64,000 nt of DNA. It comes from a virus. Where the stretch lies: positions 1 to 64,000 of IMG/VR virus record IMGVR_UViG_3300025012_000956; one strand, 5' to 3'. Position numbers and translations under genes: made by a program. Position 1 is the stretch's first letter; every line of letters starts with the position of its first letter. Under the pieces are notes generated by a model. The model ran no database searches. It was not told the origin of the DNA and saw only the letters and a program-made list of their open reading frames with translations. This document shows, piece after piece, positions 5,476 through 43,042 of this stretch.

Positions 5476-5622
5476 AAAAGTTAAATGAAATTCTACTTTA
5501 TTGATAAATTTTTATAATAAAAAGAAATTCTTCTTATATTTATTACTAATGGTAGTTATTTAAATATAATAATTACTTATTAACTATTAAATATTAACTA
5601 ATAAATTACAAGGAGAATTGTT

Positions 5623-6438: not shown

Positions 6439-6454
6439 TAACCAGAGTTGACGT

Positions 6455-23400: not shown

Positions 23401-23453
23401 GGAAATTTCCAAGTAGATACAAAAAGTTAGCTAAACAATTTTTCAATATTTAA
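20412..23453 (+). CDS. family B DNA polymerase with contiguous mini-intein
   Basis: DIEVET, TGWNIEFFDIPY, YNINDV, DLTSLYPSII, KVLLNSLYG, GDTD|S, KKRYA. Confidence 0.97.
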   Translation: MYTNIYYDRERNRISLWDDKFGYRSFPYKKYAYIEDAEGDFSTIFGTKVKKITSWNNNMEDKLYESDLSPEMRTLIDVYYDSPDNLYPDNNIVILDIEVETSHSLPDVYKAENAVTGISIHESKNDKYYSFILDLDNKIDDSKIFTDSKGNNVILKACISESQMLQEFINLIVLIKPTILTGWNIEFFDIPYLINRIAGMLGEAIVKTLSPINIIRYSEFKKRYIIAGISIIDYLSIYKKFTFSEEASYRLDSIAKKEIGRGKTGFDCSLQELYEKDIHKFIEYNINDVELVLEIDKKKKFIDLVVGISHKGRIPYEDIFYSSRYLEGAILCDLKSKNLVAPNKPNRTLTRDVSFIGAYVKDPKVGFHEWVFDLDLTSLYPSIIMSLNISPETKVGKILDWNANEFTSRKQRTWKVFNFIKNVEADVDTKDLWDFLEVSKYYISSNGIIYQSTHQREGVIPKILSKWFDERVEYKNLMKKFGKDNKKDKYDFYDRLQNIQKVLLNSLYGVLGLPIFRFYDLDNAASVTETGRSIIKFSEKKGDEYFNNVLKTNNNYCLAGDTDSVGKDSVIDTNLYGKITLLQCFDNLTIRGECDIYSDISNRKFIFPDNLVLPYYDEDNKEISYGKVKYIEKHIINKRMFRIKTKSGKFVDITEDHSLMILDESTKKLKEIKPNKLKKGDKIIKLKYDIDEVDEIIDLGIKKEVVFDVGMDDSPHTFFANNILVHNSVYFSASPLLKYLYPNLDYSNEKLATDAVSHIVSDVQKYINDSYDDFAKEILNITTGHRFNIKQELICKSGLWTAKKRYALKVVNREGILVDKLEVKGLDTVRSSFPPAFKGFLEKMLISILDKESQDKIDDDIVKMENKLNSFTINEVSKNTSITDIVKYTDEVSGYYADRIFSAIKKATPAHVRAAIAFNDLLKYYGLDNSISPIKNGEKIKWCYLKNNNFGLDKIAFRGYDDPKEILDFVNTYIDRQRIYESELKSKIENIYAALQWKFPSRYKKLAKQFFNI
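22101..22592 (+). other. 164-aa cis mini-intein in PolB motif C (GDTD|S), Ser1 / Ser+1
   Basis: SVGKDSVI...ITEDHS...VFDVGM...FFANNILVHN|SVYF; no endonuclease domain. Confidence 0.93.
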
Positions 23454-23465
23454 TCAGAGGTTATA

Positions 23466-24218
23466 ATGAATATTACTAAAAACAGATTATTAAGCTTTAT
23501 AAGAAAGTATAATCTAGGTGGAGAAGTCCAGACGGTTTTATGGACCATTAAAGATAATATATTAAATGTTAAATTTATAATAGATGATGAATCCCTTAGA
23601 GGAGAAGTTAACTGTGAGAATGTAGATCATGAGGATTTAGAATTCGTTATTTATGAAACAGATCCTTTAATAAAAATGCTTTCTGTTTTAGATGACAATA
23701 ATTTTGATGTAACAATATCTCCAATTGCGTTAAATTTTAAAGATGGTAATTCTAAACTTAAATATGTATTAGCAGATAAAAGTTTAGGTCGACGTGTAAA
23801 AAATGTAACTTATCCTAAAGATTTTATAACTATATATGAAACAGAAGATATATTAACAAAGTTTACAAAGGCACTTTCGTCTTTTACTAGGTGTGAAATT
23901 TTTGGAATAATTGCAGATGAATTAGAATCTAAAATAATATTTTCTATGAGAGAAGGTAGTACGGTTGATGTAGATGAAAGCAATTTGTCAGAACAAAAGA
24001 CTCATACATTTAATATTGATATAAAATCTGAAGAAGTTACTTTAGATATTCCTATGTTAAACTTTAATTCTAAAAGATTTAAATCTATAATTGACACTAA
24101 TAAGGGCTTTACAATGTGTAAAATTAAAATATTTAAAGTTGGAATGTTAGAATTAATATTTAAACATGAAGATGATAAAATAGATACAAATTATCAATTA
24201 GTAGCATTACAAAAATAA
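23466..24218 (+). CDS. sliding clamp (gp45/PCNA-like)
   Basis: 250 aa, acidic, beta-rich, lies between polymerase and clamp loader. Confidence 0.65.
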   Translation: MNITKNRLLSFIRKYNLGGEVQTVLWTIKDNILNVKFIIDDESLRGEVNCENVDHEDLEFVIYETDPLIKMLSVLDDNNFDVTISPIALNFKDGNSKLKYVLADKSLGRRVKNVTYPKDFITIYETEDILTKFTKALSSFTRCEIFGIIADELESKIIFSMREGSTVDVDESNLSEQKTHTFNIDIKSEEVTLDIPMLNFNSKRFKSIIDTNKGFTMCKIKIFKVGMLELIFKHEDDKIDTNYQLVALQK

Positions 24219-24226
24219 GGTGTATA

Positions 24227-24853
24227 ATGGAATTAAAAATTAATAGTCTGTTCGCAGAAAAATATAGACCTAATAATTTAGATGAATTTGTGGGTAATAA
24301 ACCCATTATAGATAAATTTAAATTATATATAAAAGAAAAGGATATACCTCATTTATTATTGGTTGGCCCACAGGGATGTGGAAAAACTTCCATCTCAAAA
24401 ATATTAGCAAAGACTATATCTCCAGATGACTATTTATATATAAATGCTTCTGATGAAAATAATATTGAAACCGTTAGAAACAAAATTAAAAATTTTGCTA
24501 TCTCTATTTCTATGAATAGTACAATAAAAATAATTATATTGGATGAATGTTTAGATGAGAATACTCCAGTTTCTGTTCTTAGATGCGGTAAAGAAGTTTT
24601 AATAAAAATTAAGGATTTAGATGATTCTGGAGATTTAGTGAAGTCTTTTAATATTAAGAAAAATAGAATAGAATATATGCCTTTTAATTTAATTGATAAA
24701 GGCATCAGCGATGATTGTTTAGAAATAGAATTAGAAACCGGTGAAATTGTTATATGTTCAAAAACACATGGATGGTATATTGAAAATGAGACCGGCGAAA
24801 TTATAATGGTTAAAGCATCTAATTTGAACAAACACATGCACATTATGACATAA
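24227..24853 (+). CDS. clamp-loader AAA+ subunit (gp44/RFC-like) N-fragment (107 aa) plus split-intein N-part (101 aa, 24548-24850)
   Basis: EKYRP, GPQGCGKT, INASDE, IIILDE|CLDENT...SKTH. Confidence 0.92.
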   Translation: MELKINSLFAEKYRPNNLDEFVGNKPIIDKFKLYIKEKDIPHLLLVGPQGCGKTSISKILAKTISPDDYLYINASDENNIETVRNKIKNFAISISMNSTIKIIILDECLDENTPVSVLRCGKEVLIKIKDLDDSGDLVKSFNIKKNRIEYMPFNLIDKGISDDCLEIELETGEIVICSKTHGWYIENETGEIIMVKASNLNKHMHIMT

Positions 24854-24910
24854 TTTTATACAAAGTGTGATTTTTCTAGATCATACCTATATATATAATT
24901 AAGAAACCTA

Positions 24911-26365
24911 TTGGAGAAAGATGTGTTTGTAAAAATATTAGGAAAAAAAATTGAATCAAATAGAAGTATAACAAATTTATTAAGAAATAAATTTAAAACT
25001 GTTGAAGTTGCATACTTATTGGAGCACGGTATGGATGCACCAAAGTGCAAATATTGTGGATTTAAGTGTATGTTTATTAGTTTTTTTAAAGGATATTTGG
25101 ATAGATGTAATTCAAATGAGTGTATACATAGAAGCGTTGTTGATTCCAATAAAATGTTGGGAAAGAAACGTGTTTTGAACAAGTTGAATAAGGACAGTGA
25201 TTTTTATAAATATATCATACAAAATTCAAATTTTTATATAAACAATTTTAAAAAGATAAATATAATAGAACCCTTTACAGGGATACGTACTGGAAAGCTA
25301 ACTCTACGATCCTTTTTACGAAGACGTATTTCTAAAGAATGTTTTTACACATATAAAGATTGTATATATTGTAATTCATCATTCTTAACAGATATTTTTA
25401 TTAATAGAAAATATTGTCATAATTCTAAATGTGTTGAAAAAGCACGTAGAAAATACATTATAAGTTCTAAACAGTTTACTCCTCAAGAGATAAACAATCT
25501 ATATCAGGTTTTTAGAATAGATGGAATATCTCATGTGGATGCGATGACTAAGATAAGAACCGAATATACATCGGACTATGTGTTAATTAATAAAATTTAC
25601 AAATATTATGACGATTACTCAATACTAAAAATTAAATACTTAACATGTCCAGTTACCGGGTTTATTATACCACTTAGATCAAGATCAAACATTTTAAAAA
25701 AACACTGCTTTATTCATAATATAGATATCAATTCATATATAGAAAAGTATTTTCCGAATTTCATCAGTAGGTGTTTATTATGTGCCGACTTTTCAGAAGT
25801 GAAATCAGATCTTATTAAAGAAACACATAAAAAGTTTTGTAACAGGGATCATTATTTACAATACAAAAAAATTAACCCCGATAAATATAGGTGTAGTGAT
25901 GATCAAAAGAATAAACAATCTAAAATAATTAAAAACTTAATTTTAAGTGGTAAATTTACTCCTAAGACTCAAAATAGGTTTACTCACTTTGAGCAAAAAA
26001 TAGTAATTAATAATATAGAGTATAAGTTTAGGAGTTCTTGGGAAGCTGCATTTTTTGTATCTAACAATATAAATTATGAAAAATCGTATGAGAAGTTGAG
26101 AATTTTATATCGTGATAAGCTTGGTAAATCCCACATATATATTTCTGATTTTTATTTACCAAACACTAATACATTATATGAATTAAAACCAAGAAATTTA
26201 TATAAAATACAAAAATATAAAATGAATGAGGTAATTAAATATTGTAAGACTAATAACATCAAATTTATATGGATTAATGAAGATAATTTATTAAATTTCT
26301 TAAACATTGAAATAGTAAAAAATTATCCAACTATTTTCGATAAGATTAAAGGAATAATAAAGTGA
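24911..26365 (+). CDS. Cys-rich putative homing endonuclease with C-terminal PD-(D/E)XK domain
   Basis: Several CxxC pairs; FRSSWE...YISDFYL...YELKP. Confidence 0.78.
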   Translation: MEKDVFVKILGKKIESNRSITNLLRNKFKTVEVAYLLEHGMDAPKCKYCGFKCMFISFFKGYLDRCNSNECIHRSVVDSNKMLGKKRVLNKLNKDSDFYKYIIQNSNFYINNFKKINIIEPFTGIRTGKLTLRSFLRRRISKECFYTYKDCIYCNSSFLTDIFINRKYCHNSKCVEKARRKYIISSKQFTPQEINNLYQVFRIDGISHVDAMTKIRTEYTSDYVLINKIYKYYDDYSILKIKYLTCPVTGFIIPLRSRSNILKKHCFIHNIDINSYIEKYFPNFISRCLLCADFSEVKSDLIKETHKKFCNRDHYLQYKKINPDKYRCSDDQKNKQSKIIKNLILSGKFTPKTQNRFTHFEQKIVINNIEYKFRSSWEAAFFVSNNINYEKSYEKLRILYRDKLGKSHIYISDFYLPNTNTLYELKPRNLYKIQKYKMNEVIKYCKTNNIKFIWINEDNLLNFLNIEIVKNYPTIFDKIKGIIK

Positions 26366-27105
26366 ATAAAATAAAAATAAAATCAATAAAAAATTACACA
26401 CAGCCCACTCACCTATATGATTTGCATGTATCATCGAATCATAATTTTTTTATCGGCGAAATGGGTACAATTCTCACTCACAACTGTGACTATATGACTC
26501 CTAATGCCCAGGCAGCGTTGAGAAATTTAATGGAAACTTATAGTAGACATACTAGATTTATCTTAACTGCTAATTATTATAATAGAATCTATGAACCTAT
26601 AATTTCTAGGTGTACAGTTTTTGAAATGGGACAAATGCCAAAACCGGATATGGCAAACAGAGTTGCAAACATTTTAGATATAGAAAAGGTAATATATAAA
26701 CCTGAGGATGTGGTTTTATTGATAAACTCTTTTTATCCGGATATGAGACAAATATTAAATGTAACCCAAAGATCAATTACAAATTGGAAACTTGAGGTAA
26801 ATAGTAATGAGATATTAGAATCAGATTATAGGTTGAAAATAATAGATATACTAAAAGATAAAAAGTTATTAAGTGAAACTAAATTTGCGAATATTAGAAA
26901 ATTAATAGCAAATCATCAGATAAAACAATTCACAGATGTGTATAGAATAATGTATGAAAATATAGATGATATTGCAAAAAATGTTTCAGATGTAATCTTA
27001 ATAATTGCAGAACAACAATATCAAGAATCATTTGTGATAGATAAGGAGATCTCCTTTATTGCATGTGTCGTGCGTATATTAAATAGTAATGATATGGAAA
27101 GATAA
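26362..27105 (+). CDS. split-intein C-part (41 aa, 26362-26484) plus clamp-loader C-fragment
   Basis: LYDLHVSSNHNFFIG...ILTHN|CDYMTPNAQAALRNLME, FILTANY, ISRC. Confidence 0.92.
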   Translation: MNKIKIKSIKNYTQPTHLYDLHVSSNHNFFIGEMGTILTHNCDYMTPNAQAALRNLMETYSRHTRFILTANYYNRIYEPIISRCTVFEMGQMPKPDMANRVANILDIEKVIYKPEDVVLLINSFYPDMRQILNVTQRSITNWKLEVNSNEILESDYRLKIIDILKDKKLLSETKFANIRKLIANHQIKQFTDVYRIMYENIDDIAKNVSDVILIIAEQQYQESFVIDKEISFIACVVRILNSNDMER

Positions 27106-29007: not shown

Positions 29008-29535
29008 ATGGGAAACAATTTATTTTTTACAAAGGTTAGAGATGTAAAATCACCTACACGTGGAACACCAGGCAGTGCCGGCATCGATTTCTATGTCCCA
29101 AAGTTTACTGAAAGTTTTATAACGGATCTTGTTAATAAAAATCCAGGTTATTATCACAGGCCAACTATTAATGGAATTGTTATGCATCCTCATGATAGAA
29201 TTTTAATTCCATCTGGAATTTGCGTTAGCATACCCCATGGGTATACTTTAATAGGTCACAATAAAAGTGGGGTAGCAAGTAAAAAAGGATTGGATATATT
29301 AGCAAGCGTTATTGACGAAGACTATCAATCTGAAATTCATTTAAATGTAGTAAATACGGGATTAACAATTCAGGATATACTTGAAGATGATAAGTTGCTT
29401 CAGTATATTTTAATTCCAGTTGTAATATCGGAAATATTGGAAATTCCTACATTGGAGGAATTATATCCTGTAAAAACAGATCGTGGAGTCGGTGGGTTTG
29501 GTTCGACGGATGAAAGAGATGAAAGAATTGTTTAA
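29008..29535 (+). CDS. dut: trimeric dUTPase
   Basis: SAGIDF, NKSG, VIDEDYQSEI, RGVGGFGST. Confidence 0.93.
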   Translation: MGNNLFFTKVRDVKSPTRGTPGSAGIDFYVPKFTESFITDLVNKNPGYYHRPTINGIVMHPHDRILIPSGICVSIPHGYTLIGHNKSGVASKKGLDILASVIDEDYQSEIHLNVVNTGLTIQDILEDDKLLQYILIPVVISEILEIPTLEELYPVKTDRGVGGFGSTDERDERIV

Positions 29536-30707
29536 TGAGATGGGCAACTATCATACCGTTAATAGGTGGACAATCAATAGGAACATACCAATTTCTAAAG
29601 GAGGAACCAGAGGTTATTGCTTCCTTTAGACAATTTAAAAATAACGAAAGGTATTTAAAGCAGTATTGGCCATCATTTAATTATAAGATACTTGACAAAA
29701 CTAATATTAATTTGAAATTAAAGAATATCGATTTTATAAATACTTTGTGTCCATGTGCAGGGTTATCAGAATTAAATAGTGGGAAAGACTCAGAGTTAGC
29801 TCGTGGAGTCGAAGCATTACAAAACAATTGGATGTATTTAACTGCAGAATATGTTCTGCAAAATGTTAAACCCAAGGTGTTTTATGGTGAGAATACAGAT
29901 AACTTATTTTCAGGCAAAATAGGATCAGAGATATCTGATAGGTTATATAAAATTGCTGTAGATAATGGTTATTCATTTTCGATGTTAAGAACAGATGCGA
30001 GATTTCACGGGCTTCCTCAGAAAAGAATTCGTACATTTTATTTTTTCTGGAATTCTAAACGAGCTCCTAGTATTCCTATTAATAGTTTAACCACCAATGA
30101 AGATTTAGGAATGTTTTTAGGAGAAGATTATTTAATAAATGAACAATTAAATAAGGCAACTGATAGATTAGTTAACAATATATATTATAAATATGTTATA
30201 AAAGAATTTGGTCAAGATTATAGATCTTTATATTCAGGAATTCCATTGACACTGATGGAGTTGATTGTTAAAAACAATAAGCTACTAGATTTTGAAATAT
30301 TTGTCAAAGATATTATGGACCAAAAAGTTTTATTGAAAATAGAAAAACATAAAAATAAGTTAGGTTATTGGGATGACTCACCAATAATAGTAAAAGATTA
30401 TACAAACTCGGCGACAAGTAGAAATATAAATACAATCCACCCTACAGAAGAAAGAATTTTAACCTTAGGTGAATGGATAAAAATTATGGGAATGCCACCA
30501 CAATTTCTAACATATTTATCAGATAGAAGAACTTCATACTTACACTTATTTCAAAATGTTCCAGTAGATGTTGCTAGAGATGTTGCTAGATATGTCGTAC
30601 AGTTTATAAATGGGGATTTAAGTTTTGCTAATACTGATTATGTTAAGCAAGACTGGGTTACCACAAAATTTGAAGATATAGGTAAATTTAAACATTCGTT
30701 TTTTTAA
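29535..30707 (+). CDS. DNA cytosine-C5 methyltransferase-like protein with deviant motif I
   Basis: IPLIGG (I), PCAGLS (IV), EN (VI), GLPQKRIRTF (VIII), HPTEERILT, QNVP (X). Confidence 0.8.
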   Translation: MRWATIIPLIGGQSIGTYQFLKEEPEVIASFRQFKNNERYLKQYWPSFNYKILDKTNINLKLKNIDFINTLCPCAGLSELNSGKDSELARGVEALQNNWMYLTAEYVLQNVKPKVFYGENTDNLFSGKIGSEISDRLYKIAVDNGYSFSMLRTDARFHGLPQKRIRTFYFFWNSKRAPSIPINSLTTNEDLGMFLGEDYLINEQLNKATDRLVNNIYYKYVIKEFGQDYRSLYSGIPLTLMELIVKNNKLLDFEIFVKDIMDQKVLLKIEKHKNKLGYWDDSPIIVKDYTNSATSRNINTIHPTEERILTLGEWIKIMGMPPQFLTYLSDRRTSYLHLFQNVPVDVARDVARYVVQFINGDLSFANTDYVKQDWVTTKFEDIGKFKHSFF

Positions 30708-30717
30708 GAGGTATAAT

Positions 30718-31269
30718 ATGGAACCAAAAGTAATTGTGCTTGAAGGTCCGGATTCCGGAGGTAAAAGTACCCAAGCAAAAATGTTATTAAAATATTTATT
30801 AGATAAACCAACCTATGTAATTCATTTTTCTAATATATCTGGAATCACTTCAGAGCAATCAAGAGAATATAGTTATAAGTTATATAATGATGCATTTGTA
30901 ATGATGCAAGAAGCATATTCTAATAACAGAAATTTAATATTTGACAGGTGTCATATCGGTGAGTATGTATATTCTCCAATATATAGAGATTATTCAGGAG
31001 ATTTTATATTTGAAATAGAGAATAAATTTAAAAATAAAAACTTTTTTAAAAACGTATATCTATTTTTATTTGAAGATTTAATAGAAAATCTTATAAAGAG
31101 AGATGATGGTCATTCATTTTCTACTGAACCGGATGTTAAGATTAGGGAATTAAAACTGTTTAAAGAAGCATTTGAAAAATCTCACATTCATCATAAGTTT
31201 ATAGTGAATATATTTAATTCTCCTAAAGAAGAGGTTAATGATTTTATTGTTAAAGCATTAGGAATTTAA
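30718..31269 (+). CDS. deoxynucleoside monophosphate kinase (thymidylate-kinase family)
   Basis: IVLEGPDSGGKST, IFDR.H..EYVY. Confidence 0.85.
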   Translation: MEPKVIVLEGPDSGGKSTQAKMLLKYLLDKPTYVIHFSNISGITSEQSREYSYKLYNDAFVMMQEAYSNNRNLIFDRCHIGEYVYSPIYRDYSGDFIFEIENKFKNKNFFKNVYLFLFEDLIENLIKRDDGHSFSTEPDVKIRELKLFKEAFEKSHIHHKFIVNIFNSPKEEVNDFIVKALGI

Positions 31270-32027
31270 TGTTAGAAGAAACATTACTTCCTTTTATTAT
31301 ACCAACGTTCAATTTAAATGAACTTAAAGATGAATATTGGGAATTAATCGGTATACATAAATTTAAATATACATTACCTCAGAATTTTATAGATATGAGT
31401 GGTATAATGTTTCCCGGATTTAAATTTTCTAGTAAAGAAGCAGCTAAATTTTATGATGAAACTGTTTTAGACTTTGTAGTAAATGAATTAAAAGCATTTA
31501 CAACTCCTAGAGGGAATTTAAGTAAAGAAAATAATATAATAATGATAGGTCAAAGACCAGGTCATTTTGGTGCACATTTAAGTAAAGCAGAATCTGCTTG
31601 GTTGTTGGGTCCATCGAGTAAAATGTTGGTTAATTTATGTAAAGAATTAAAAATATATCCATATTTTACAAACTTTTATCATTCGCACTATGTAGATCCA
31701 GATAGAGCTTGGTATAATATCTATAAGGAATTAGTTGGTATATTTACTTTATACAAAAATTTTTATAATAAATCCGATTTTAGAATCGTTTTCTTAGGTA
31801 ACTATAGTGAATATGATGAATTGAAAATAGAGTTAGAAAAGCTTACAGACTTAAAATTACAATTTATTAAAATTTGGCATCCTGCATACTTGCTAAGAAA
31901 CAGTAATCCTAATTTATTTAGTCAGTGGGTAACTAGTTTAGGAAGACAGTTAGTAAAAGAAGAAATTCCAGGTTATTATTTAGACCATAAATTTAAAGGT
32001 AAATACAAATATGATAAAATTATCTGA
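31269..32027 (+). CDS. uracil-DNA glycosylase-superfamily protein
   Basis: IMIGQRPG motif 1, YFTN, VFLG, WHPAYLLR motif 2. Confidence 0.65.
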   Translation: MLEETLLPFIIPTFNLNELKDEYWELIGIHKFKYTLPQNFIDMSGIMFPGFKFSSKEAAKFYDETVLDFVVNELKAFTTPRGNLSKENNIIMIGQRPGHFGAHLSKAESAWLLGPSSKMLVNLCKELKIYPYFTNFYHSHYVDPDRAWYNIYKELVGIFTLYKNFYNKSDFRIVFLGNYSEYDELKIELEKLTDLKLQFIKIWHPAYLLRNSNPNLFSQWVTSLGRQLVKEEIPGYYLDHKFKGKYKYDKII

Positions 32028-32625
32028 TATTATTAATTATTTAATTCAACAGAATAATTTTAATTCTTATTTAGAAATAGGAGTATCAACTGGAGTTTGT
32101 TTCGGTGCAGTAAATTGTAAATTTAAAGATGTCGTAGATCCTGTTAAACAAACGTCTGATGTTAATTATAATATGACGTCCGATGCGTTTTTCAAAGTGG
32201 TCGACCCTAATAAAAAATATGATGTAATATTAATTGATGGGTTGCACACCACAGAACAGGTATTAAAAGATTATAATCATTCATTATCTCACCTATCAGA
32301 AACTGGATATATTTTACTGGATGATACTTGTCCGTATGATGAATCTTGGGTAATCCCAGAAGGAAATCCTGGTGGCTGGTGTGGTACTATATATAAGTTT
32401 ATGATCGATCTTGCGTATAATAACTGTGATATTAATTATAATACGGTTTTTGTACCCCATGGACATACAATAATAACAAGAGGAAAACGAGAACCCTTGT
32501 ATCTTCAATATTCTGATGATTGGTCATTCTTTGATAGATATAGATCTGTTATATTAAACTTAATTTCAGAAGAAGATTTTTATATGATGTACATGAAAAA
32601 ACAAAATGAAACTAGCAGTTATTAA
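32011..32625 (+). CDS. class I SAM methyltransferase (Methyltransf_24-like)
   Basis: YLEIGV, VDP, TSDAFF, YDVILIDGLH, ILLDD. Confidence 0.85.
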   Translation: MIKLSDIINYLIQQNNFNSYLEIGVSTGVCFGAVNCKFKDVVDPVKQTSDVNYNMTSDAFFKVVDPNKKYDVILIDGLHTTEQVLKDYNHSLSHLSETGYILLDDTCPYDESWVIPEGNPGGWCGTIYKFMIDLAYNNCDINYNTVFVPHGHTIITRGKREPLYLQYSDDWSFFDRYRSVILNLISEEDFYMMYMKKQNETSSY

Positions 32626-33727
32626 ATTTGGTGGCAGAATGAATGCCAATGCAGATGGTGCAGTTGGTGGTGAGGTAATGGCTGCGATTGATCTATTAGT
32701 TAGAGGTGACAATGAAGTACATTACTATACACATATTAATAATAAAGATGTTGCACTACCAGGTGCACACGGTCAGAATATAGAATATTTTGGCAATGAT
32801 ACTAGTTTTGATGCATTAATAGTAATAAATGGTAATATAAATTATTATGGTGGTGCTGAACCGGAACTCGAGATGAAAAATTTAAGATTGCTCAATTCTT
32901 TTCCGGGAAAAGTTTTCTATATAATGTTTGATCCTATGCTACCACTTCGACAACATTGGAAAGGTGTAAGTAATAAGCAAGAAAAATATAAGTGGAATAA
33001 TAAATATTCTAAAGAAGAAATAGAAATAGTTAGAGATGATATTATTTATATTTCACAGCCGTATGACCTAACAGCAGTTAGAGAAATGTTAGATGGTTTA
33101 GGAGTACCTTATAAGGATGTATTACACTATCCTTTATATAAAATGCATTTAGTATTTTATGATAGGTTACTTAAAATAAAATCGCCATCAGGAGAATATA
33201 GAACTGTAGATTTGACATACGGTGGTACTTTTAGAAATAAAAAACGAGAAGATAAACTTATAAAATTTTATTTTGGGTACCCATGTACTGTCAATGTTGA
33301 GATATTTGGTAAGATTAAGCTATCAGACTTCAATAAGAATAAGATAAAAGGACTGAGAGCACCTTTATTTACTGGACAAATTAAACATAATCTAGTTCGA
33401 CGGAAGATGTCTAGGGCATATGCCACTGTATCAATTGGCGATAAGTGGTATGAAGGTAGAAATCTAGCACAGCGAATTTATGAAAGTATATTATCAAATT
33501 GTATTACATTTATTGATGAAGAATTAGATCCTCAACACGTAGTATATGGAGAAGAATTGCCTAAATTTTATGTTAAAGATAGGGATCAGGTTCTTGAGCA
33601 ACTATTATTAATTAAAATATTTGAGGAAAAATTTGATGAAATACTTGATCAACAATATGATATAGTAAAGATAGATAAACAAGAATTTGTAAACGGATTA
33701 ACTAATCTCATAGGTAATAATTTATGA
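32606..33727 (+). CDS. T4 DNA beta-glucosyltransferase homologue
   Basis: Collinear matches to T4 BGT as recalled: LIVINGNINYYGG / DLTYGGTFR..RE.K / APLFTG.I / IGDK.Y / R.YE / IDEELD. Confidence 0.85.
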   Translation: MKLAVIKFGGRMNANADGAVGGEVMAAIDLLVRGDNEVHYYTHINNKDVALPGAHGQNIEYFGNDTSFDALIVINGNINYYGGAEPELEMKNLRLLNSFPGKVFYIMFDPMLPLRQHWKGVSNKQEKYKWNNKYSKEEIEIVRDDIIYISQPYDLTAVREMLDGLGVPYKDVLHYPLYKMHLVFYDRLLKIKSPSGEYRTVDLTYGGTFRNKKREDKLIKFYFGYPCTVNVEIFGKIKLSDFNKNKIKGLRAPLFTGQIKHNLVRRKMSRAYATVSIGDKWYEGRNLAQRIYESILSNCITFIDEELDPQHVVYGEELPKFYVKDRDQVLEQLLLIKIFEEKFDEILDQQYDIVKIDKQEFVNGLTNLIGNNL

Positions 33728-33775
33728 CAACGTTGGACTGGGAATTGGTAAAAGAAAAATAACAGATATAGAACT

Positions 33776-35587
33776 ATGATAAAAACAGATAAAATAAAAA
33801 TAGTAATATTTTCAGGTGGGCACGGTGCCTCTAATATTCTAGAAGGATTATATGCGTTAGATAAAACCGGAGAAGCACTTCAGATAACTCAAATTGTCAA
33901 TGGACTAGATGATGGGGCATCAGGTGGAATTGTAAGAAGAGTAATGAATGTACTGTGTCCTGGAGATTTAAGAAAAAATCAATTTAAACATTATTGCCTT
34001 ACTCATAAAGGAAACGTGAATATGGCGATTGTTGAATTTTGTGACAAGCGATATGATTTGACTCTTGGTTCTGAATTACATGATGTGTTAAAACTATTAG
34101 ATATTTGGGATTTTCCAGAAAAATTATTATTTAAAGAATTAGCAACTAAATTCTTTAGTGTAGCGAGTTCTTTTAAAGAAAAATTTAATTTCTTCGGAAT
34201 CAATATCTCAAATATTATATATGCATCTATGATTAATAGTATTGGATATGATGAAACGTTTAAGTATTTTAAGAAGTTCTTTGGGATAAAACATGACGTA
34301 ATGTTGATATCAGAAGATAATTTACAGTTGCGTGCGATCACTAAAGACTGGACACTAATAGAAACAGAAACTCCTGGAATAATAAAACATAATAATAAAG
34401 AAAATTATATTATGGATATATTATTTGAACGATTTAATCCTCTTAGTTCTAAATCTGAACATACGACTGCGTTAGCATCAAAGATAATAATATATTCTGA
34501 AGAAAAAATAAAAGACGCAGATTTAATTATATTTGCACCTGGTACTCAATGGAGTTCTTTAATTCCAACATATGCTACAGTTGGACTAGATGATGTATTG
34601 AAGAAATCTAAGGCTAAAAAGATTTTAATAATGAATAATGATGAAGATGGAGATTCAATAGGAAGAACTGCGGGTGATTTACTAAATAGTATATCAAAAT
34701 ATTTAACATTAGATAATATAAATATATTTATTAATAATCTTGCCAGTGAGCCACTTCAGAATATAGAAAATTTTAAAAATAAAAACAATATAACGATCTA
34801 TATTAAGGTATTAGGTCATGGTTTAGCTAGATCATCTAAAACTGTAGAAGAAATATTTAAGCTATATTATAATTTAACTAAACCTGATTTTATATTCTGT
34901 GATTTTGATGATACTATTTATTCTAGAGATCCAACACACAGTAAGATTTCAGAAGAAAATTTGATTTTATTGGATAAAATTTCTAAAAAAATTCCTACTA
35001 TTATTGTTTCAGGTAATGATTATGAAACTATTCACAGTAAACTAATTAAGAATTTTGGAAGTTCTGGTCTAAATAATATTAAATTTGATATCTGGGCAGA
35101 TGGTGGTTTAGTTAAATATGAACAGGGTATACCCGTTATAAGAACAGCACTTTTGGACAATACTAAAGAAACACTGTCTTATTTACAAGGCGACATACTG
35201 GGTTTACCTAAAGATAAAATATTTCTTAGAGGTGATTGGCCAAAACAAGATATAAAAAATATTACGTGTATAGGAATAAAACCTCTTACGGAATTAGAAA
35301 AAACGTTATTGATAAATATTTTAAATATATTTTTTAAAGAAAATCGCTTTTATAATGTTGCCAAAAGAATAGGTTTAACTGGTATAGATATTATATCTGT
35401 TAATAGTGACAAGAAAAAAGTTTTACATTATTATAATTCATCATATGGAAAAACTACATTGTACATAGGAGATGAATTGAGAGATGGAAATGATGAAAAT
35501 ATTTCTAGTGCATGTAATTTTAAATATAATGTTAAATCACCATATGACACAAATATACTGTTACAACTAATAAATGAGGAATTGTAA
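33776..35587 (+). CDS. CofD/YvcK (UPF0052) family domain fused to HAD-IIB phosphatase/phosphomutase
   Basis: FSGGHG, DDGASGG, PGDLR, ADLIIFAPGTQWSSLIP; then CDFDDT, VSG, K, IGDE...GND. Confidence 0.8.
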   Translation: MIKTDKIKIVIFSGGHGASNILEGLYALDKTGEALQITQIVNGLDDGASGGIVRRVMNVLCPGDLRKNQFKHYCLTHKGNVNMAIVEFCDKRYDLTLGSELHDVLKLLDIWDFPEKLLFKELATKFFSVASSFKEKFNFFGINISNIIYASMINSIGYDETFKYFKKFFGIKHDVMLISEDNLQLRAITKDWTLIETETPGIIKHNNKENYIMDILFERFNPLSSKSEHTTALASKIIIYSEEKIKDADLIIFAPGTQWSSLIPTYATVGLDDVLKKSKAKKILIMNNDEDGDSIGRTAGDLLNSISKYLTLDNINIFINNLASEPLQNIENFKNKNNITIYIKVLGHGLARSSKTVEEIFKLYYNLTKPDFIFCDFDDTIYSRDPTHSKISEENLILLDKISKKIPTIIVSGNDYETIHSKLIKNFGSSGLNNIKFDIWADGGLVKYEQGIPVIRTALLDNTKETLSYLQGDILGLPKDKIFLRGDWPKQDIKNITCIGIKPLTELEKTLLINILNIFFKENRFYNVAKRIGLTGIDIISVNSDKKKVLHYYNSSYGKTTLYIGDELRDGNDENISSACNFKYNVKSPYDTNILLQLINEEL

Positions 35588-36343
35588 ATGTTGGGCCTAA
35601 TTCTCTGTGCGGGTAAACAAACCAGATTTAATTCTGGAGTACCTAAGGCATTAATGCCTTATAATAAAGATAAAACTATTTTAGGTAAAAATATAGAAAC
35701 TATGATAGAATTCGTAAATGATATTATTTTAGTACTTAATAAAGATAATAATAATACTTTATATGAGGAATATGCTAATAATTTTGTTAGGATTATAGAA
35801 ATAGAATCAGGTCATGGAAGTGGAGATGCTATCCTTCAAATATTTAATCAGTTGAAGACTGTAGAAGAAATATTCGCAGACATTTTTTTAATCTGGGGTG
35901 ATTCTATACAAGACAGTACTGCTCTATATAGAACTACATTAAATAATTATAATGATTATTGCACGGTTCCTATTAGATTAGAAAATGAACCCTATACTCA
36001 TTTTGTATGTGATCATGATAATATTATCAAGTCAGTGGAATTTAAAAACAGAGGTGCTAAATATATTCAAGGTTACCATGATTTTTCTCTATTTTTATTT
36101 AATTTAGTTAAAATGAATGTTATTTTAGATTCTTATAATTTAATGAAATGGTTACCGGAGAATAATAAATATGATACAATAAATGGTGAATTTGAATTTT
36201 TAGATATATTTAACCAATTTAATTATCTAGAATTTGCAAAAGCTGTTATAATTGATAATATAAAATCTAACAATGCATTCAATACAATGGAAGAATATTT
36301 GAAATTAATTAATGGGGTTACAGATGAGAATAGTAAGCAATAA
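35588..36343 (+). CDS. sugar-phosphate nucleotidyltransferase
   Basis: LILCAGKQTRF...PKAL, GSGDA, WGD, FNT.EE. Confidence 0.85.
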   Translation: MLGLILCAGKQTRFNSGVPKALMPYNKDKTILGKNIETMIEFVNDIILVLNKDNNNTLYEEYANNFVRIIEIESGHGSGDAILQIFNQLKTVEEIFADIFLIWGDSIQDSTALYRTTLNNYNDYCTVPIRLENEPYTHFVCDHDNIIKSVEFKNRGAKYIQGYHDFSLFLFNLVKMNVILDSYNLMKWLPENNKYDTINGEFEFLDIFNQFNYLEFAKAVIIDNIKSNNAFNTMEEYLKLINGVTDENSKQ

Positions 36344-37226
36344 TTTTGCAGAAATATATAAAGATCTATTAACAACAATATATTATAATCCAGATCATAT
36401 TATTTCTCCACGAGAATACCAGACAAAAGAGTGTTGTAATGTTGAATTAGTTTTAACAGATCCAACTTCAAACTTATTTACAAATAAAATTAGAAGTCCT
36501 AAGTTAAATTATTTATATCCTGAATTGTTATACTATTTTTTAGGTAGAAATGATTTAGAATTTATTTCTAAATATTCTACTTTCTGGAATAAAATAGCAA
36601 ATAATGATAGAACTGTAAATAGTGCATATGGATATCTTTTATTTAGAGAGAGGAATATACATGGCTGGACAGAATATCAATGGGCATTTAATTCACTTAT
36701 TGTAGATAAAAATTCTAGGCAAGCTATTTTAAGATTTAATAAACCAGAACACTCATATTTAGATAATAAGGATTTTGTGTGTACATTGAATGGTATATTT
36801 CATATCAGAAAAAATAAAGAATTAAACTGTGATGTATTAAATTTTACAACAACAATGAGATCACAAGATGTTTGGTTTGGAATTATATATGATATTCCTT
36901 TTTATACTTTGTTGCAGCAACAAATGTTAAATCATTTAAAACAAGAAAAATATCCTGATTTACAGCTTGGTAAATATACTCATTATATATTAAGTGAACA
37001 TATATATAAAAAAGATTTTGAAAATATAGAAAAAATGCTAAATGAAGAATTTATATCGGACAGTACTCCGTTACTAGTTAAAAATTTAATAGAACCCAGT
37101 GGTAATCCAACGCAAGAATTATATTTAATATTACAAACAGTAGAAAATAATAATGAGTATACAGATTTTGGAGATGAACTAATAAATAAAATAGTAAAAT
37201 TTTCTTTAAGGGAAAACAATGAATAA
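36312..37226 (+). CDS. thymidylate-synthase-family enzyme, dCMP hydroxymethylase (T4 gp42) type
   Basis: NSAYG, SRQA, DFVCT, MRSQDVWFGIIYD (Asp where dUMP-specific TS has Asn), HIY; likely start 36324. Confidence 0.8.
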   Translation: MGLQMRIVSNNFAEIYKDLLTTIYYNPDHIISPREYQTKECCNVELVLTDPTSNLFTNKIRSPKLNYLYPELLYYFLGRNDLEFISKYSTFWNKIANNDRTVNSAYGYLLFRERNIHGWTEYQWAFNSLIVDKNSRQAILRFNKPEHSYLDNKDFVCTLNGIFHIRKNKELNCDVLNFTTTMRSQDVWFGIIYDIPFYTLLQQQMLNHLKQEKYPDLQLGKYTHYILSEHIYKKDFENIEKMLNEEFISDSTPLLVKNLIEPSGNPTQELYLILQTVENNNEYTDFGDELINKIVKFSLRENNE

Positions 37227-37683
37227 ACAACAGAGATTAGATAAAATATTTATTAATATTGCACTGGAATTTGCAACATTATCTCATTGTGTTACTTATA
37301 AAGTGGGCGCAGTTGCAGTTAATGATAATAGGATTATTGCTACAGGAATTAATGGTACTCCAGAAGGAATGTTAAACTGCGATCGAGTATTTAAAAATTA
37401 TAATTCTGAGACAGATAGAGAAGAACACCATATGTGGAGTGAAATACATGAGCTCCACGCTGAATTAAATGTTATACTTTTTTGTGCAAAAAACGGAATT
37501 TCATTAAAAGGAACAACAGTTTATTCTACTGTTCAACCATGTCAACAGTGTCTGAAAAATATGTTGCAATGTGGTATAGTAAGAATAGTTTATAAATACC
37601 CATATGACAAAGCAGTTGAAAGTAAACTTATAAAAGAATATATGAAAGAAAAAAATATAATAATAGAACAAATAGAGGAGTAA
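37219..37683 (+). CDS. dCMP deaminase
   Basis: VGAV, TGINGTP, HAELN, PCQQC. Confidence 0.92.
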   Translation: MNKQQRLDKIFINIALEFATLSHCVTYKVGAVAVNDNRIIATGINGTPEGMLNCDRVFKNYNSETDREEHHMWSEIHELHAELNVILFCAKNGISLKGTTVYSTVQPCQQCLKNMLQCGIVRIVYKYPYDKAVESKLIKEYMKEKNIIIEQIEE

Positions 37684-37685
37684 AT

Positions 37686-38057
37686 ATGAAAACAGATATA
37701 AAATTATCTAATGAAGATTTAATATTAACGACTGAGATGGAGAAAAAATATCCCAAAATGACAGCTGAGTTTAGAAATATATGTGCAGAACAATATTTAA
37801 TGTTTTTAAAAAAACAGCATGATTATGGTCCCTCAAATATTGCAATAAACACACAACTAGAAACAGACGAGGATATCAAAAATTCATTGATTGGAATTAC
37901 TGTTAGATGTAGTGATAAGGTAAGTAGATTGGTTAATTTAATATTAAAGAGAAAAGATGAGAAACCAAAAAACGAATCGATTGTAGACACTTTTGTTGAT
38001 ATGAGTATTTATTCTAAAATTGCAATGATTGTCCTAAGAGGAAAATGGGCAAAATGA
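37686..38057 (+). CDS. DUF1599 / nucleotide-modification-associated domain protein
   Basis: KKQHDYG..NI, R..DK..RL.NL, ESI.DT..D...Y. Confidence 0.75.
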   Translation: MKTDIKLSNEDLILTTEMEKKYPKMTAEFRNICAEQYLMFLKKQHDYGPSNIAINTQLETDEDIKNSLIGITVRCSDKVSRLVNLILKRKDEKPKNESIVDTFVDMSIYSKIAMIVLRGKWAK

Positions 38058-39888: not shown

Positions 39889-40101
39889 ATGAATATAGGA
39901 GATGAGAAACTAACAACTGTTAGGGTATCTGTAAATGAATATGATAAATTTAAAATAAACTGCATAAAACAAAAAACAAATTTTAAAAAAGTAGTAGCTA
40001 AGATGCTTCATTTGATTAATAATTACGAAGATATAAAGTACTTGATGACAACTGATATTTTATATGTTTCAGGTAGTTTAAATTTAGGAGATGATGTATG
40101 A
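39889..40101 (+). CDS. small RHH-like DNA-binding protein heading the glycan island
   Basis: KLTTVRV...YDKFKINC....NFKKVV; RBS GAGG. Confidence 0.55.
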   Translation: MNIGDEKLTTVRVSVNEYDKFKINCIKQKTNFKKVVAKMLHLINNYEDIKYLMTTDILYVSGSLNLGDDV

Positions 40102-41546
40102 TAATAAATGGATATGAGTACATACCAAGAGAACAAAGAAAGCACATATTACTTCTTAGTGATGATCTCCGAATGAGTTCAGGGGTAGGAACAGCATCTA
40201 GAACATTTGTTATGGGAACAGCTCATAGATTTAATTGGTTTCAATTGGGTACTGCAATCAATCATCCAGAGATGGGTAAAAGATTTGATCTATCCCAAGA
40301 CTTAAATAATAGATTGGGAATAACAGATGCTCAGGTAATGGTACAACCTCATAATAATTATGGAGATCCAGACTTAATAAGAATGCTATTACATGAGTTT
40401 AAGTTTGATGCAATAATGCACTTCACAGATCCAAGACAGTGGCTTTGGTTATATAATATGGAACATGAAATTAGGTTACAAATGCCCATATTTTTTTACC
40501 ACGTTTGGGATAATTTACCATATCCTGAATATAATAAAACATATTATCAATCGTGTGATTGGATTGCGTGTATAAGTAAACAAACAGAAAATATTGTAAA
40601 GAATGTTTGGAATGAATTTGGACCAGAAGATTGGCAAGTTACATATATACCCCATGGTATAGATGAAAAAGAATATTACCCCACAACAGAACTAGAACCT
40701 GGGTTAAACAGAGAGGTTGAGGGTCATATTAAAACTGATTATGATATGATGTTAGATATGAAAAAGAAGATATTTGGAGAAAATGAGTTCGACTTTATAG
40801 TATTTTATAATAATAGGAATATAAGAAGAAAAAGTCCATCGGATATTATATTGGCATTTGTAGAATTATTAAAATCTTTACCTAAAGAAAAAGCAGATAA
40901 GTGTGCCTTACTTATGCACACTCATGTTGTAGATTTTAATGGTACAGATTTGAATGAGGTTAGGAATATGGTTGGACGTGGCTGGGAAAGAAATATTCAT
41001 TTTCATGAGACTAAAGTTAATCCTATAGAATTAAATTATCTTTATAATATGAGTGATATCACAATAAACATAGCTGCCGCAGAGGGATTTGGATTATCAA
41101 CTGCGGAATCATTGATGGCGGGTGTGCCAATTTTAGCAACTGTTACAGGTGGATTACAAGATCAAATGGGATTTAAAGATGAAAACGGAAAATATATAAA
41201 GTTTACAAAGGACTTTGGTAGCAATCACGATGGCAAAATAAAAGGTACTCATGGTGAATGGGTATTTCCTATATTCCCAGCAGCTAGAAGCTTAGTTGGA
41301 TCTCCTCCTACACCATATATATTTGATGATAGAGTACGATGGGAAGATACGGGAATATTGTTAAGGGAAATTTATGATTTGGGTAAAGATGAATTAAGAA
41401 GACGTGGGTTAGAAGGAAGAAAGTTTGTATTAAAAGAAGAAGTTGGAATGAGTGCTAGCAATATGTGTAATAGATTTATTACTGGAATGGAAAAGGCCTG
41501 GGAAAAATGGAAACCTAGAAATAGGTACAGCATAATTAAATTTTAA
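40098..41546 (+). CDS. GT-B (GT4-like) glycosyltransferase
   Basis: SGVG, IPHGID, NRNIRRK, EGFGLSTAESL.AG.P. Confidence 0.9.
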   Translation: MIINGYEYIPREQRKHILLLSDDLRMSSGVGTASRTFVMGTAHRFNWFQLGTAINHPEMGKRFDLSQDLNNRLGITDAQVMVQPHNNYGDPDLIRMLLHEFKFDAIMHFTDPRQWLWLYNMEHEIRLQMPIFFYHVWDNLPYPEYNKTYYQSCDWIACISKQTENIVKNVWNEFGPEDWQVTYIPHGIDEKEYYPTTELEPGLNREVEGHIKTDYDMMLDMKKKIFGENEFDFIVFYNNRNIRRKSPSDIILAFVELLKSLPKEKADKCALLMHTHVVDFNGTDLNEVRNMVGRGWERNIHFHETKVNPIELNYLYNMSDITINIAAAEGFGLSTAESLMAGVPILATVTGGLQDQMGFKDENGKYIKFTKDFGSNHDGKIKGTHGEWVFPIFPAARSLVGSPPTPYIFDDRVRWEDTGILLREIYDLGKDELRRRGLEGRKFVLKEEVGMSASNMCNRFITGMEKAWEKWKPRNRYSIIKF

Positions 41547-41571
41547 AAATATAAATGAAATATATGAAAAC

Positions 41572-41700
41572 ATGGACAAAATTAAACATTATATAGTATA
41601 TAAAACAACTAATCTAGTTAATGGTAAAATTTATATAGGAATACATTCTACTTTTAATTTATCAGACATAAATAATAAATTGGAGTATAATTATGAATAA
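41572..41700 (+). pseudogene. truncated GIY-YIG (Seg-like) endonuclease remnant, 42 aa
   Basis: MDKIKHYIVYKTTNLVNGKIYIGIHST then degenerates into the next gene's RBS region. Confidence 0.75.
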
Positions 41701-43042
41701 ACCACTGTTATTATGTATTTCTCCTGTTAGAGCTCGGGCCGGGTACGGGTCGCATTCTAGAGATATCGTGCGTTCTTTGATTAAATTAAACAAATATGAT
41801 ATTAAAATTTTAAGTATTCGTTGGGGTACAACACCGTTAAATGTATTAAAACCTGGTATTGATGATGATATTTTAAGTAGACTTCTTTTAAGACCAGAAT
41901 TATCTAAGAAACCTGAGATAACTGTTCAAATTTCGGTTCCAAATGAATATAATGGTGACTTAGGTTTGTTTAATATAGGAATAACAGCTGGTGTTGAAAC
42001 AACAATTTGTTCTCCTCAGTGGTTAGAGGGGTTGAATAGAATGAATTTTAATATAGTGCCATCTAAATCTGCTAAAAGCGTATTTGAAAATTCTGTGTAT
42101 GGTAAAAAAGATCAAATGGGTAATATAGTTTCAGAACTTCGATGTCAGAAGCCTATTTATGTTCTATTTGAAGGTGTAGATACAAATGTATTTAAGAGAA
42201 ACGAAAATATTACTGGAAATATTAAAAGAAAGTTAAATGAATTTCCAGAAGATTTTCTTTTCTTATTTGTAGGTCACTGGTTGAATGGTGAATTGGGTGC
42301 AGATAGAAAAGATACAGGTATGTTAATTAAAATATTTTTGGAAACATTTAAGAATAAATTAAATAAACCTGCACTATTACTTAAGACTGGAAATACTTTT
42401 TCTTATACTGAAAGACAGGAATTATTAGCTAAAGTTAATAGAATAAAAAATGTGATACAGGGGGATTTGCCAAATATATATATACTGTTTGGTGATCTGA
42501 CTCAAGAAGAAATGAATGATTTGTATAACCATACAAAAGTCAAAGTTCATATAACATTTACAAAAGGTGAGGGATTTGGACGTCCACTATTAGAGGCTAG
42601 TTTAAGTGAGAAACCGATAATCGCTAGTGGGTGGAGTGGTCATTTAGATTTTTTGCCAAAAGAAAAAGCAATATTATTGCCAGGTACTATATCCCAAGTT
42701 CATCCAAGTGCAGTTTGGAATGGAGTTATTGAACCAAATTCTCAGTGGTTTAATGTAAATTATTCATATGCTTCTAACATAATGACTGATGTTTGGAAAA
42801 ATTATCAGAAATATGTACCTATGGCAAAGTTATTAGCACAAGAAAACAAAGAAAAATTTTCATTAGATAAGATGGTAGAAGAATTAGATAAATTATTTAA
42901 TGAACATGTTCCAAAATTCGCAGAACAAAAAACTTTTAATATTCCACAGTTACCTCGTTTAACACCAATTAAAATAAAAAATGAAGGTAAAGAAGATAAT
43001 AAGGAAACAGAAGAAATTAAAGAAGTACAAGAAAAACAATAA
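41693..43042 (+). CDS. GT-B (GT4-like) glycosyltransferase
   Basis: AGYG, FLFVGHW, DRKD, GEGFGRPLLEA. Confidence 0.9.
   Translation: MNKPLLLCISPVRARAGYGSHSRDIVRSLIKLNKYDIKILSIRWGTTPLNVLKPGIDDDILSRLLLRPELSKKPEITVQISVPNEYNGDLGLFNIGITAGVETTICSPQWLEGLNRMNFNIVPSKSAKSVFENSVYGKKDQMGNIVSELRCQKPIYVLFEGVDTNVFKRNENITGNIKRKLNEFPEDFLFLFVGHWLNGELGADRKDTGMLIKIFLETFKNKLNKPALLLKTGNTFSYTERQELLAKVNRIKNVIQGDLPNIYILFGDLTQEEMNDLYNHTKVKVHITFTKGEGFGRPLLEASLSEKPIIASGWSGHLDFLPKEKAILLPGTISQVHPSAVWNGVIEPNSQWFNVNYSYASNIMTDVWKNYQKYVPMAKLLAQENKEKFSLDKMVEELDKLFNEHVPKFAEQKTFNIPQLPRLTPIKIKNEGKEDNKETEEIKEVQEKQ

Follow-up and report, generated by a model that had tools for sequence, protein, structure and literature searches.

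An array of eleven plus-strand open reading frames (ORFs) at 29008-38057 of the IMG/VR virus record IMGVR_UViG_3300025012_000956 probably encodes a T4-like pathway for DNA containing 5-hydroxymethylcytosine (hmC), equipped with a self-contained cassette that would supply the sugar donor. The stretch that we analysed, called the window below, is the first 64 kb of this 74.5-kb record, whose completeness is estimated at ~37%. At the core of the array lie a homologue of the T4 beta-glucosyltransferase (BGT), a fusion of a YvcK/CofD-like domain with a phosphomannomutase (PMM)-type HAD domain, a sugar-1-phosphate nucleotidyltransferase (NTP transferase) and a thymidylate synthase (TS)-family enzyme of the T4 gp42 type.

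The initial annotation of this DNA had proposed that the HAD, CofD/YvcK-fold and NTP-transferase enzymes build a nucleoside diphosphate (NDP)-linked donor for the BGT homologue. This proposal is now strongly backed, both by synteny across divergent phages and by the company of other glycosyltransferases that the same genes keep in bacteria. Family calls were made with Pfam, PHROGs and NCBIfam profile searches. Family and fold assignments, active-site signatures and synteny were obtained directly, and it is from these that we infer all enzymatic reactions and the direction in which they run, the identity of the sugar and the role of the YvcK-like domain.

Conservation of the cassette in viruses and bacteria

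A related-locus search with the fusion sequence alone returned none; the loci were recovered with the family alignment as the query. The fusion family as a whole gave 229 matches in the protein search. The viral set (n=26) consists of 24 IMG/VR loci and two GenBank genomes, the Ralstonia jumbo phage RsoM2USA and the huge phage LR756500, at 27-45% identity to the window.

In a neighbourhood search of the kind suggested by the initial annotation, the NTP transferase adjoined the fusion in 25 of the 26 viral loci, and a BGT homologue did so in 20. Homologues of the gp42-type TS, nearby in several loci, recur together with kinases and deaminases within a few kb of the cassette. In RsoM2USA, the trio runs across the record ends (BGT, ORF2; fusion, ORF1; NTP transferase, ORF486), and the gp42-type TS is encoded nearby by ORF10. 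In the published annotation of this phage, ORF2 is given as a beta-glucosyl transferase and ORF10 is labelled a putative thymidylate synthase; ORF1 is a hypothetical protein in GenBank. The closest relative of the window, locus L004 (IMGVR_UViG_3300021949_000015), encodes operon proteins that are 45-65% identical to those of the window, and its content includes a dUTPase, a kinase, a Dam-type N6-adenine methyltransferase, BGT, the fusion, TS, a deaminase, a DUF1599 protein and a PD-(D/E)XK nuclease. The synteny rules out chance adjacency of the cassette genes.

The NTP transferase also adjoins the full-length fusion in 36 of 37 loci from bacterial metagenome-assembled genomes (MAGs), where BGT and TS homologues are absent. 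The carriers are gut Clostridia, Christensenellaceae, Lachnospiraceae and others. All four annotated bacterial loci have a family 2 glycosyltransferase (GT2) beside the pair, directly upstream in L035, L033 and L038 and downstream, with LicD, in L053. These GT2 neighbours were typed by NCBIfam as EpsU/PgaC-like only, which does not reveal the sugar. As the composition of the cassette stays constant while the neighbouring transferase changes, it is most simply read as a donor-synthesis module.

The domains are not always arranged in the same way. At L024:3924-6288 it is the nucleotidyltransferase that carries the HAD domain, in a 444-aa protein that begins with a DFDDT motif, and the CofD-like domain is on its own. 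P0030 combines a GT2 with the CofD-like protein in one fusion. Stand-alone CofD/YvcK-like proteins without HAD were seen within ~2 kb of an NTP transferase, mostly adjacent to it, in L067-L070, L083, L092, L093, L097 and L100. The hosts of this stand-alone pair are SAR86, Moraniibacteriota, Nanoarchaeota, Pacearchaeota and Woesearchaeota MAGs, so the pairing extends far wider than phages.

The bacterial loci bring up a different destination for the sugar, namely that the cassette is not directed at DNA and serves as a sugar-nucleotide module for glycosylation of virion proteins or the host envelope. In bacteria the pair does serve GT2 synthases of the exopolysaccharide type, and the window holds a separate ~23-kb glycan island whose counterpart in Flavobacterium phage immuto occurs without BGT and with a normal ThyA. 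We nevertheless give this explanation very little credence, because the viral neighbour of the fusion is specifically a BGT homologue across such low levels of identity, and gp42-type TS, kinase and deaminase genes repeatedly accompany it.

The glycosyltransferase and the probable donor cassette

The BGT homologue (32606-33727, plus strand) belongs to family GT63. It matches PF09198 at 7e-14 (52.4 bits against a cut-off of 27), phrog_7922 at 1e-52 and the T4 enzyme in the PDB (1bgt) at 2e-38 across residues 66-355. In the HMMER alignment, D100, R191, R195, R269 and E272 of the T4 enzyme are all conserved; we take D100 to be the catalytic base and the other four to be the UDP-binding residues. 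Since these catalytic and UDP-binding residues are kept, the protein is most naturally read as an inverting DNA glycosyltransferase that depends on a UDP-sugar, and hmC in DNA is its predicted acceptor.

The fusion gene follows at 33776-35587 on the plus strand (PF01933, 8e-27). Its product comprises a YvcK/CofD-like domain (~residues 1-345) and a PMM-type HAD domain (~370-603), and the AlphaFold2 model has a predicted local distance difference test (pLDDT) value of 92. Foldseek searches with this model retrieved YvcK (2hzb/2o2z) at 1e-14, PMM at 5e-10 and CofD at 4e-8, and the family profile matched YvcK at 5e-29, PMM at 6e-16 and the Lactococcus alpha-phosphoglucomutase 4bnd at 5e-12. As a single sequence, the C-terminal half matched PMM2 at 1e-3.

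The N-terminal domain is nearer YvcK than CofD. In NCBIfam it hits the YvcK model TIGR01826 at 4e-26, although with 92 bits it stays below the family threshold of 196, and the CofD equivalog TIGR01819 at 0.008 (15 bits against a cut-off of 257). Across 32 homologues, the invariant residues on the YvcK side are S13, G14, G15 and G17 (SGGxG, corresponding to the GGTG motif) and D45 of YDDG. On the HAD side they are D376, D378, T380, K546, G565, D566, N572 and D573, that is, the DxD motif, the lysine and GDE..GND. The C-terminal domain has HAD motifs I-IV and a PMM-type cap (HAD subfamily IIB, PF03332); the PMMs that it matches best are of the eukaryote type, and 4bnd is an atypical alpha-phosphoglucomutase.

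The NTP transferase gene begins directly behind the fusion gene (35588-36343, plus strand). It resembles the GlmU N-domain and RmlA (PF12804, 6e-8; TIGR01173 glmU, 4e-9) and carries the conserved motifs AAGxxxR..PK, SGxGxG and WGD. In Foldseek searches with its model (pLDDT 92.6), GlmU, with a template modelling (TM) score of 0.80, and RmlA were the top matches, and the GlmU/RmlA matches ranged from 0.74 to 0.81. Neither CofC nor MobA was found among the matches listed (ranks to 50). Going by the modelled fold, the enzyme is of the hexose-1-phosphate, GlmU/RmlA-like type and not CofC-like, and since it folds in this way the cassette is likely to provide the neighbouring glycosyltransferase with an NDP-hexose.

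The initial annotation had also considered a phospho-moiety on the DNA. In such a CofC/CofD-style transfer, an NDP-X would be made and X-phosphate placed on hmC or on the sugar attached by BGT, giving a phosphodiester-linked group. The CofD family does exactly such chemistry in the synthesis of coenzyme F420, the neighbouring enzyme is assigned by Pfam to NTP_transf_3, and the family of MobA-like NTP transferases includes CofC. The very wide pairing of CofD-like proteins with NTP transferases, including stand-alone ones in bacterial and archaeal MAGs, would fit as well. What makes us regard this chemistry as improbable is the GlmU/RmlA fold of the partner, with CofC and MobA missing from its listed matches, together with the N-domain, which matches YvcK far better than CofD in both the profile and the Foldseek comparison. 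Moreover, since the same pair at ~30% identity serves GT2 polysaccharide synthases in bacteria, a DNA-specific acceptor for the fused enzyme, or a DNA-specific role for its YvcK-like domain, is unlikely.

Base chemistry

The TS-family gene (36312-37226, plus strand; PF00303, 4e-16) encodes a predicted dCMP 5-hydroxymethylase of the gp42/MilA type. In a PDB search, its closest solved relatives were the CMP hydroxymethylase MilA (8.5e-17) and T4 gp42 (4e-7). Both the VCT and the FGIIYD motif singled out in the initial annotation were found in it. The catalytic Cys of DFVCT aligns with T4 C148 and with the MilA Cys, and GIIYD aligns with T4 FRND (D179), which places an Asp at the position of ThyA N177. 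As DFVCT aligns with T4 DFMCT, an Asp also lies three residues before the catalytic Cys, at the position of ThyA L143. Finally, D169 is kept in the motif RSQD.

According to Lee et al. (NAR 2026, PMC13326640), an Asp in place of ThyA N177 makes the enzyme specific for cytosine, an acidic residue in place of L143 goes with hydroxymethyl and not methyl products, and D169N marks the flavin-dependent 5-hydroxy-dCMP synthases, being present in every one tested. Seven full-length TS homologues near the cassette in other phages share the hydroxymethylase signature, including D169; an eighth neighbouring homologue (L020) was recovered only as a truncated ORF and stands outside this count. The residue pattern is thus that of a hydroxymethylase, and we predict a dCMP 5-hydroxymethylase rather than an enzyme of the 5-hydroxycytosine type. 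The gp42-type assignment of the initial annotation is borne out by the Asp at N177, the acidic residue before the Cys and the retained D169.

The same signature bears on whether the base could be a glycosylated 5-hydroxycytosine, as in RB69, DLP3 and RL38J1. MilA, the best PDB match of the window TS, is also the top structural match of known 5-hydroxy-dCMP synthases (PMC13326640, Table 1), and the layout of thymidylate kinase (TMPK)-like kinase, glycosyltransferase, HAD enzyme and NTP transferase resembles the DLP3 and RB69 clusters. The D169N mark is absent, however, with Asp in the window enzyme and in all seven full-length neighbouring homologues, and the transferase is a homologue of BGT, which in T4 acts on hmC. 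Both points make 5-hydroxycytosine a highly improbable base here.

The array encodes further nucleotide enzymes. The TMPK-like dNMP kinase (30718-31269, plus strand; PF02223, 1e-6; phrog_761, 4e-18) is a predicted 5hm-dCMP kinase. In 10 viral loci its homologues are kept close to the cassette or to the TS homologue, and TMPK-like kinases also form part of the clusters for cytosine modification in DLP3 and RB69 (PMC13326640, Table 1). The array opens with a dUTPase-family gene (29008-29535, plus strand; PF00692, 8e-13; phrog_135, 2e-29), in whose product motifs 1-5 are all readable, including the C-terminal RGVGGFGST. Its homologues lie beside the cassette in L004, L010, L020, L024, L025, L026 and L064, and the enzyme may possibly act as a dCTP pyrophosphatase as well. 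The dCMP deaminase is encoded at 37219-37683 on the plus strand (PF00383, 4e-20; phrog_174, 2e-47). No ThyX was found in the 74.5-kb record, a weak negative since the record covers ~37% of the genome, and no second TS-family gene was found in this partial record either.

Accessory genes

The initial annotation had listed a C5-methyltransferase-like gene and a class I S-adenosylmethionine (SAM)-dependent methyltransferase in the same operon. Conservation does not support their place in one pathway with the cassette, as neither has a match in the 26 viral or 80 genome loci. The first of them is a divergent C5 cytosine methyltransferase-like gene (29535-30707, plus strand; PF00145, 1e-18). The motifs PC (IV, CPCAGLS), GEN (VI-like), QKRIR (VIII) and NVPV (X-like) are present, but motif I reads PLIGGQSIG where FxGxG is expected; the TIGR00675 score is 44 bits against a cut-off of 100. 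The second (32011-32625, plus strand; PF13578, 5e-9) belongs to Methyltransf_24. It has no relative in the phage collection and is possibly a sugar methylase. Neither of these genes, nor the uracil-DNA glycosylase (UDG)-like gene described below, was found in the 22.6-kb fragment of L004.

Homologues of the C5-methyltransferase-like protein occur in the Cyanophage S-TIM5 group and in Pseudoalteromonas phage XG4. We observed the C5-methyltransferase fold and a TS-family gene together in XG4 (L110, at 82-804 and 5423-6577) and in Cyanophage S-TIM61 (L109, at 3757-4593 and 6977-8194). The TS-family genes of XG4 (SDFMCT...FPND) and S-TIM61 ('ThyA', ...GVPLD) both have Asp at the ThyA N177 position. 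The C5-methyltransferase fold thus recurs beside cytosine-specific TS homologues.

A different class I SAM methyltransferase, of the Methyltransf_23/31 type and unrelated to the Methyltransf_24 protein whose gene abuts BGT in the window, lies inside the cassette in six viral loci (L010:1498-2322, L016:9192-10004, L019, L025:8781-9587, L022:8979-10001 and L026:11796-12509). It separates the fusion either from BGT or from the NTP transferase. Identity is 56% between the proteins of L010 and L016, and those of L019 and L025 are ~56% identical to that of L010. With the window counted, 7 of 27 phage loci have a SAM methyltransferase inside or beside the cassette, which suggests a tailored sugar in at least some phages and hints that certain lineages methylate it.

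The UDG-superfamily-like gene (31269-32027, plus strand) is a weak call, with 18.3 bits against the PF03167 cut-off of 24.3. Its product had an ESM Atlas feature score of 0.96 and a structural TM score of 0.54 to family-4 UDG clusters, which back the call as a lead, and it had no PDB sequence match. Homologues lie beside BGT in two loci, L013 (47% identity) and L020 (37%). The last gene of the array encodes a small DUF1599/phrog_1485 protein (37686-38057, plus strand; phrog_1485, 2e-17) whose PF07659 score is below the cut-off. It is kept in L004 at 58% identity, and it too gave no PDB sequence match.

Proposed pathway

Taken together, these assignments allow us to outline a T4-like route with its own donor supply. 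The TS homologue would convert dCMP to 5-hydroxymethyl-dCMP, the TMPK-like kinase would phosphorylate 5hm-dCMP, and the phage polymerase would insert hm-dCTP, while the dUTPase-family enzyme and the dCMP deaminase would balance the dC and dU pools. On the donor side, the PMM-type HAD domain would turn hexose-6-phosphate into hexose-1-phosphate, from which the GlmU/RmlA-like enzyme, using a nucleoside triphosphate, would form an NDP-hexose. The BGT homologue, an inverting enzyme of the GT-B fold, would then move the sugar from a UDP- or other NDP-sugar onto the hydroxymethyl group of the DNA. The YvcK/CofD-like domain would act in the same small-molecule pathway, perhaps as a second uridylyltransferase, in UDP-sugar binding or in phosphotransfer.

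Several points weigh against this outline. Each of its steps is deduced from homology and gene neighbourhood. Making an NDP-hexose takes no more than a mutase and a nucleotidyltransferase, and this leaves the YvcK-like domain without a required role. The HAD domain could, judging by its fold, be a phosphatase instead of a mutase, as sugar phosphatases and trehalose-6-phosphate phosphatase are likewise among its Foldseek matches. The closest relative, L004 (45% identity), has BGT and the fusion and lacks the NTP transferase in its 22.6-kb fragment. The C5-methyltransferase-like gene is hard to reconcile with complete substitution at C5. Finally, no MazG-type dCTPase was found in the 74.5-kb record, which is again a weak negative at ~37% of the genome, and full replacement of cytosine is not established.

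For the YvcK-like domain, a regulatory role through UDP-sugar binding and a role as uridylyltransferase are equally possible. Listeria GlmR/YvcK has been reported as an accessory uridylyltransferase that converts GlcNAc-1-P and UTP to UDP-GlcNAc (PMC10128056). A phosphotransfer step, by analogy with the kinase-plus-HAD logic of AfhE/AfhF, is possible too.

As to the sugar, UDP-glucose is a credible donor, held at somewhat less than an even chance; a hexosamine, a mannose-type sugar or a methylated hexose can be entertained at least as readily, also short of even, and other donors account for the rest. The simplest version of the T4-like pathway, and a sub-case of it, is ordinary T4 chemistry in which the cassette only boosts the supply of UDP-glucose (Glc-6-P to Glc-1-P to UDP-Glc) and the product is plain beta-glucosyl-hmC. 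It agrees with the T4 UDP-binding and catalytic residues kept in the BGT homologue, with the HAD domain, which matches the alpha-phosphoglucomutase 4bnd as well as it does PMMs, and with the NTP transferase, which is as close to the glucose-1-phosphate enzyme RmlA as to GlmU. The whole phage genome is estimated at ~200 kb (from 74.5 kb at 37% completeness), and such a phage with fully glucosylated cytosine would presumably need a large UDP-glucose flux. Yet every cassette keeps the YvcK-like domain, to which a mere boost gives no role, T4 and its relatives need no donor genes, and the SAM methyltransferases in or beside the cassette suggest a tailored sugar in some phages. We therefore consider it a rather doubtful, though serious, version.

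A more ambitious version, which we also hold only tentatively and think somewhat unlikely, makes the YvcK/CofD-like domain catalytic in an undescribed route to an activated sugar. The product would be an as yet undescribed hypermodified cytosine, a non-glucose, amino- or methyl-hexosyl-hmC made by many uncultured phages and by RsoM2USA. One possibility is an anomeric phosphotransferase that would yield a hexose-1,6-bisphosphate, which the PMM-like domain would trim to hexose-1-phosphate, in analogy to AfhE/AfhF. Another is a hexosamine uridylyltransferase, with a product that may be further methylated in some phages.

Gene array and genomic surroundings

The eleven ORFs of the array overlap or are spaced by no more than 48 nt, and all the families named in the initial annotation were recovered, with weak calls for the UDG-like and DUF1599 proteins. 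The window has a GC content of ~28%, and its plus strand carries nearly all long ORFs, including all annotated genes. A promoter and terminator scan gave no signal above chance and no terminator-like sites on the plus strand within 29008-38057, and the phage collection gave no match to the 9-kb region in a megablast search.

Upstream of the array lie replication genes, namely those for an intein-containing family B DNA polymerase, a split clamp loader and a small subunit of the clamp loader. At 20412-27105, the intein-splicing match falls in the polymerase, and the two halves of the clamp-loader ATPase are separated by intein fragments and an ORF for a TnsA-like nuclease.

Downstream, the DUF1599 gene is followed by a PD-(D/E)XK nuclease, small ORFs, two GT4 genes and a ~23-kb glycan island (40098-63156) interrupted by homing endonucleases. 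Besides the two GT4 genes, the island carries GT2, cytidylyltransferase-like, NDP-sugar epimerase/dehydratase, GFO/IDH/MocA oxidoreductase, Glyco_trans_1_2 and GT10-like genes, two DegT aminotransferases and two Methyltransf_23 genes. The Flavobacterium phage immuto has a PD-(D/E)XK nuclease, an adjacent GT4 pair (43-48% identical) and a comparable glycan cluster, in a genome with a normal ThyA and without BGT. The nuclease, the GT4 pair and the island were not counted in the hmC pathway because they recur there. For the same reason we dropped the idea that the GT4 pair (40098-43042) consists of DNA transferases that extend the sugar.

At L013:12587-14944, a homologue of GT4a lies downstream of the cassette and encodes 785 aa with Hint and intein-splicing domains. 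This would be a glycosyltransferase intein.

Implications

How restriction, CRISPR and type IV defence turn out is decided by the hypermodifications of phage DNA, which are also a source of enzymes for epigenetic sequencing. Dozens of very different phages carry the cassette, as do gut bacteria, there with other transferases, and it ties YvcK/GlmR, a family of disputed function, to a testable job, that of supplying a DNA glycosyltransferase. If the sugar is not glucose, both the modified base and the route to the NDP-sugar would be new. In the case of glucose, large phages would bring their own UDP-glucose supply, and the cassette would still offer a handle on YvcK biochemistry. As a cultured carrier, RsoM2USA makes the question of the sugar directly answerable.

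Comparison with known systems

The initial annotation knew of no described base-modification pathway that uses a CofD/YvcK-fold enzyme. Full-text searches agreed with this, as they found no literature tying CofD or YvcK to phage DNA modification. The closest comparisons are therefore with systems that share parts of the array.

The CofC/CofD pair of F420 synthesis (FbiD/FbiA) has in common with the window the CofD superfamily fold and a partner of the NTP_transf_3 family. It differs in that the window domain falls far short of the CofD equivalog, the partner is GlmU/RmlA-like and other F420 genes are absent from the context. The best match of the N-domain in both sequence and fold is YvcK/GlmR (UPF0052), the UDP-GlcNAc-binding protein of Firmicutes. 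The motifs GGTG, DDG..S.G and G..(Y/W)(T/S)S..P are kept, and the putative catalytic Asp pair mutated in Listeria GlmR3 is conserved. In contrast to YvcK/GlmR, the window domain shares its polypeptide with a PMM-type HAD domain and is accompanied by a GlmU-like nucleotidyltransferase and a glycosyltransferase, with no link to GlmS or YvcJ.

The arabinosyl-5-hydroxycytosine clusters of RB69, DLP3 and HY126 (AfhE/AfhF; PMC13326640) share with the window a TS homologue, a TMPK-like kinase and DNA glycosyltransferases. They also share phage-encoded NDP-sugar synthesis by a HAD enzyme and a sugar-1-phosphate nucleotidyltransferase (PMC13326640). Unlike them, the window keeps D169, which predicts hmC, and has no arabinose-5-phosphate isomerase or kinase domain; its HAD domain is of the PMM type and fused to a YvcK/CofD-like domain, and its transferase is of the BGT type whereas theirs are GT4 enzymes.

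With the 5hmC pathway of T4, the window shares a TS-family enzyme with the hydroxymethylase signature, a GT63 BGT with conserved residues and a dCMP deaminase. T4 uses the dNMP kinase gp1 and the dCTPase/dUTPase gp56, whereas the window phage has a TMPK-like kinase and a trimeric dUTPase-family enzyme. T4 draws UDP-glucose from its host, while the window phage adds the donor cassette along with the C5-methyltransferase-like, UDG-like and SAM-methyltransferase genes. Set against these relatives, the system is probably T4-type hmC glycosylation with an uncharacterised, widely conserved donor cassette.

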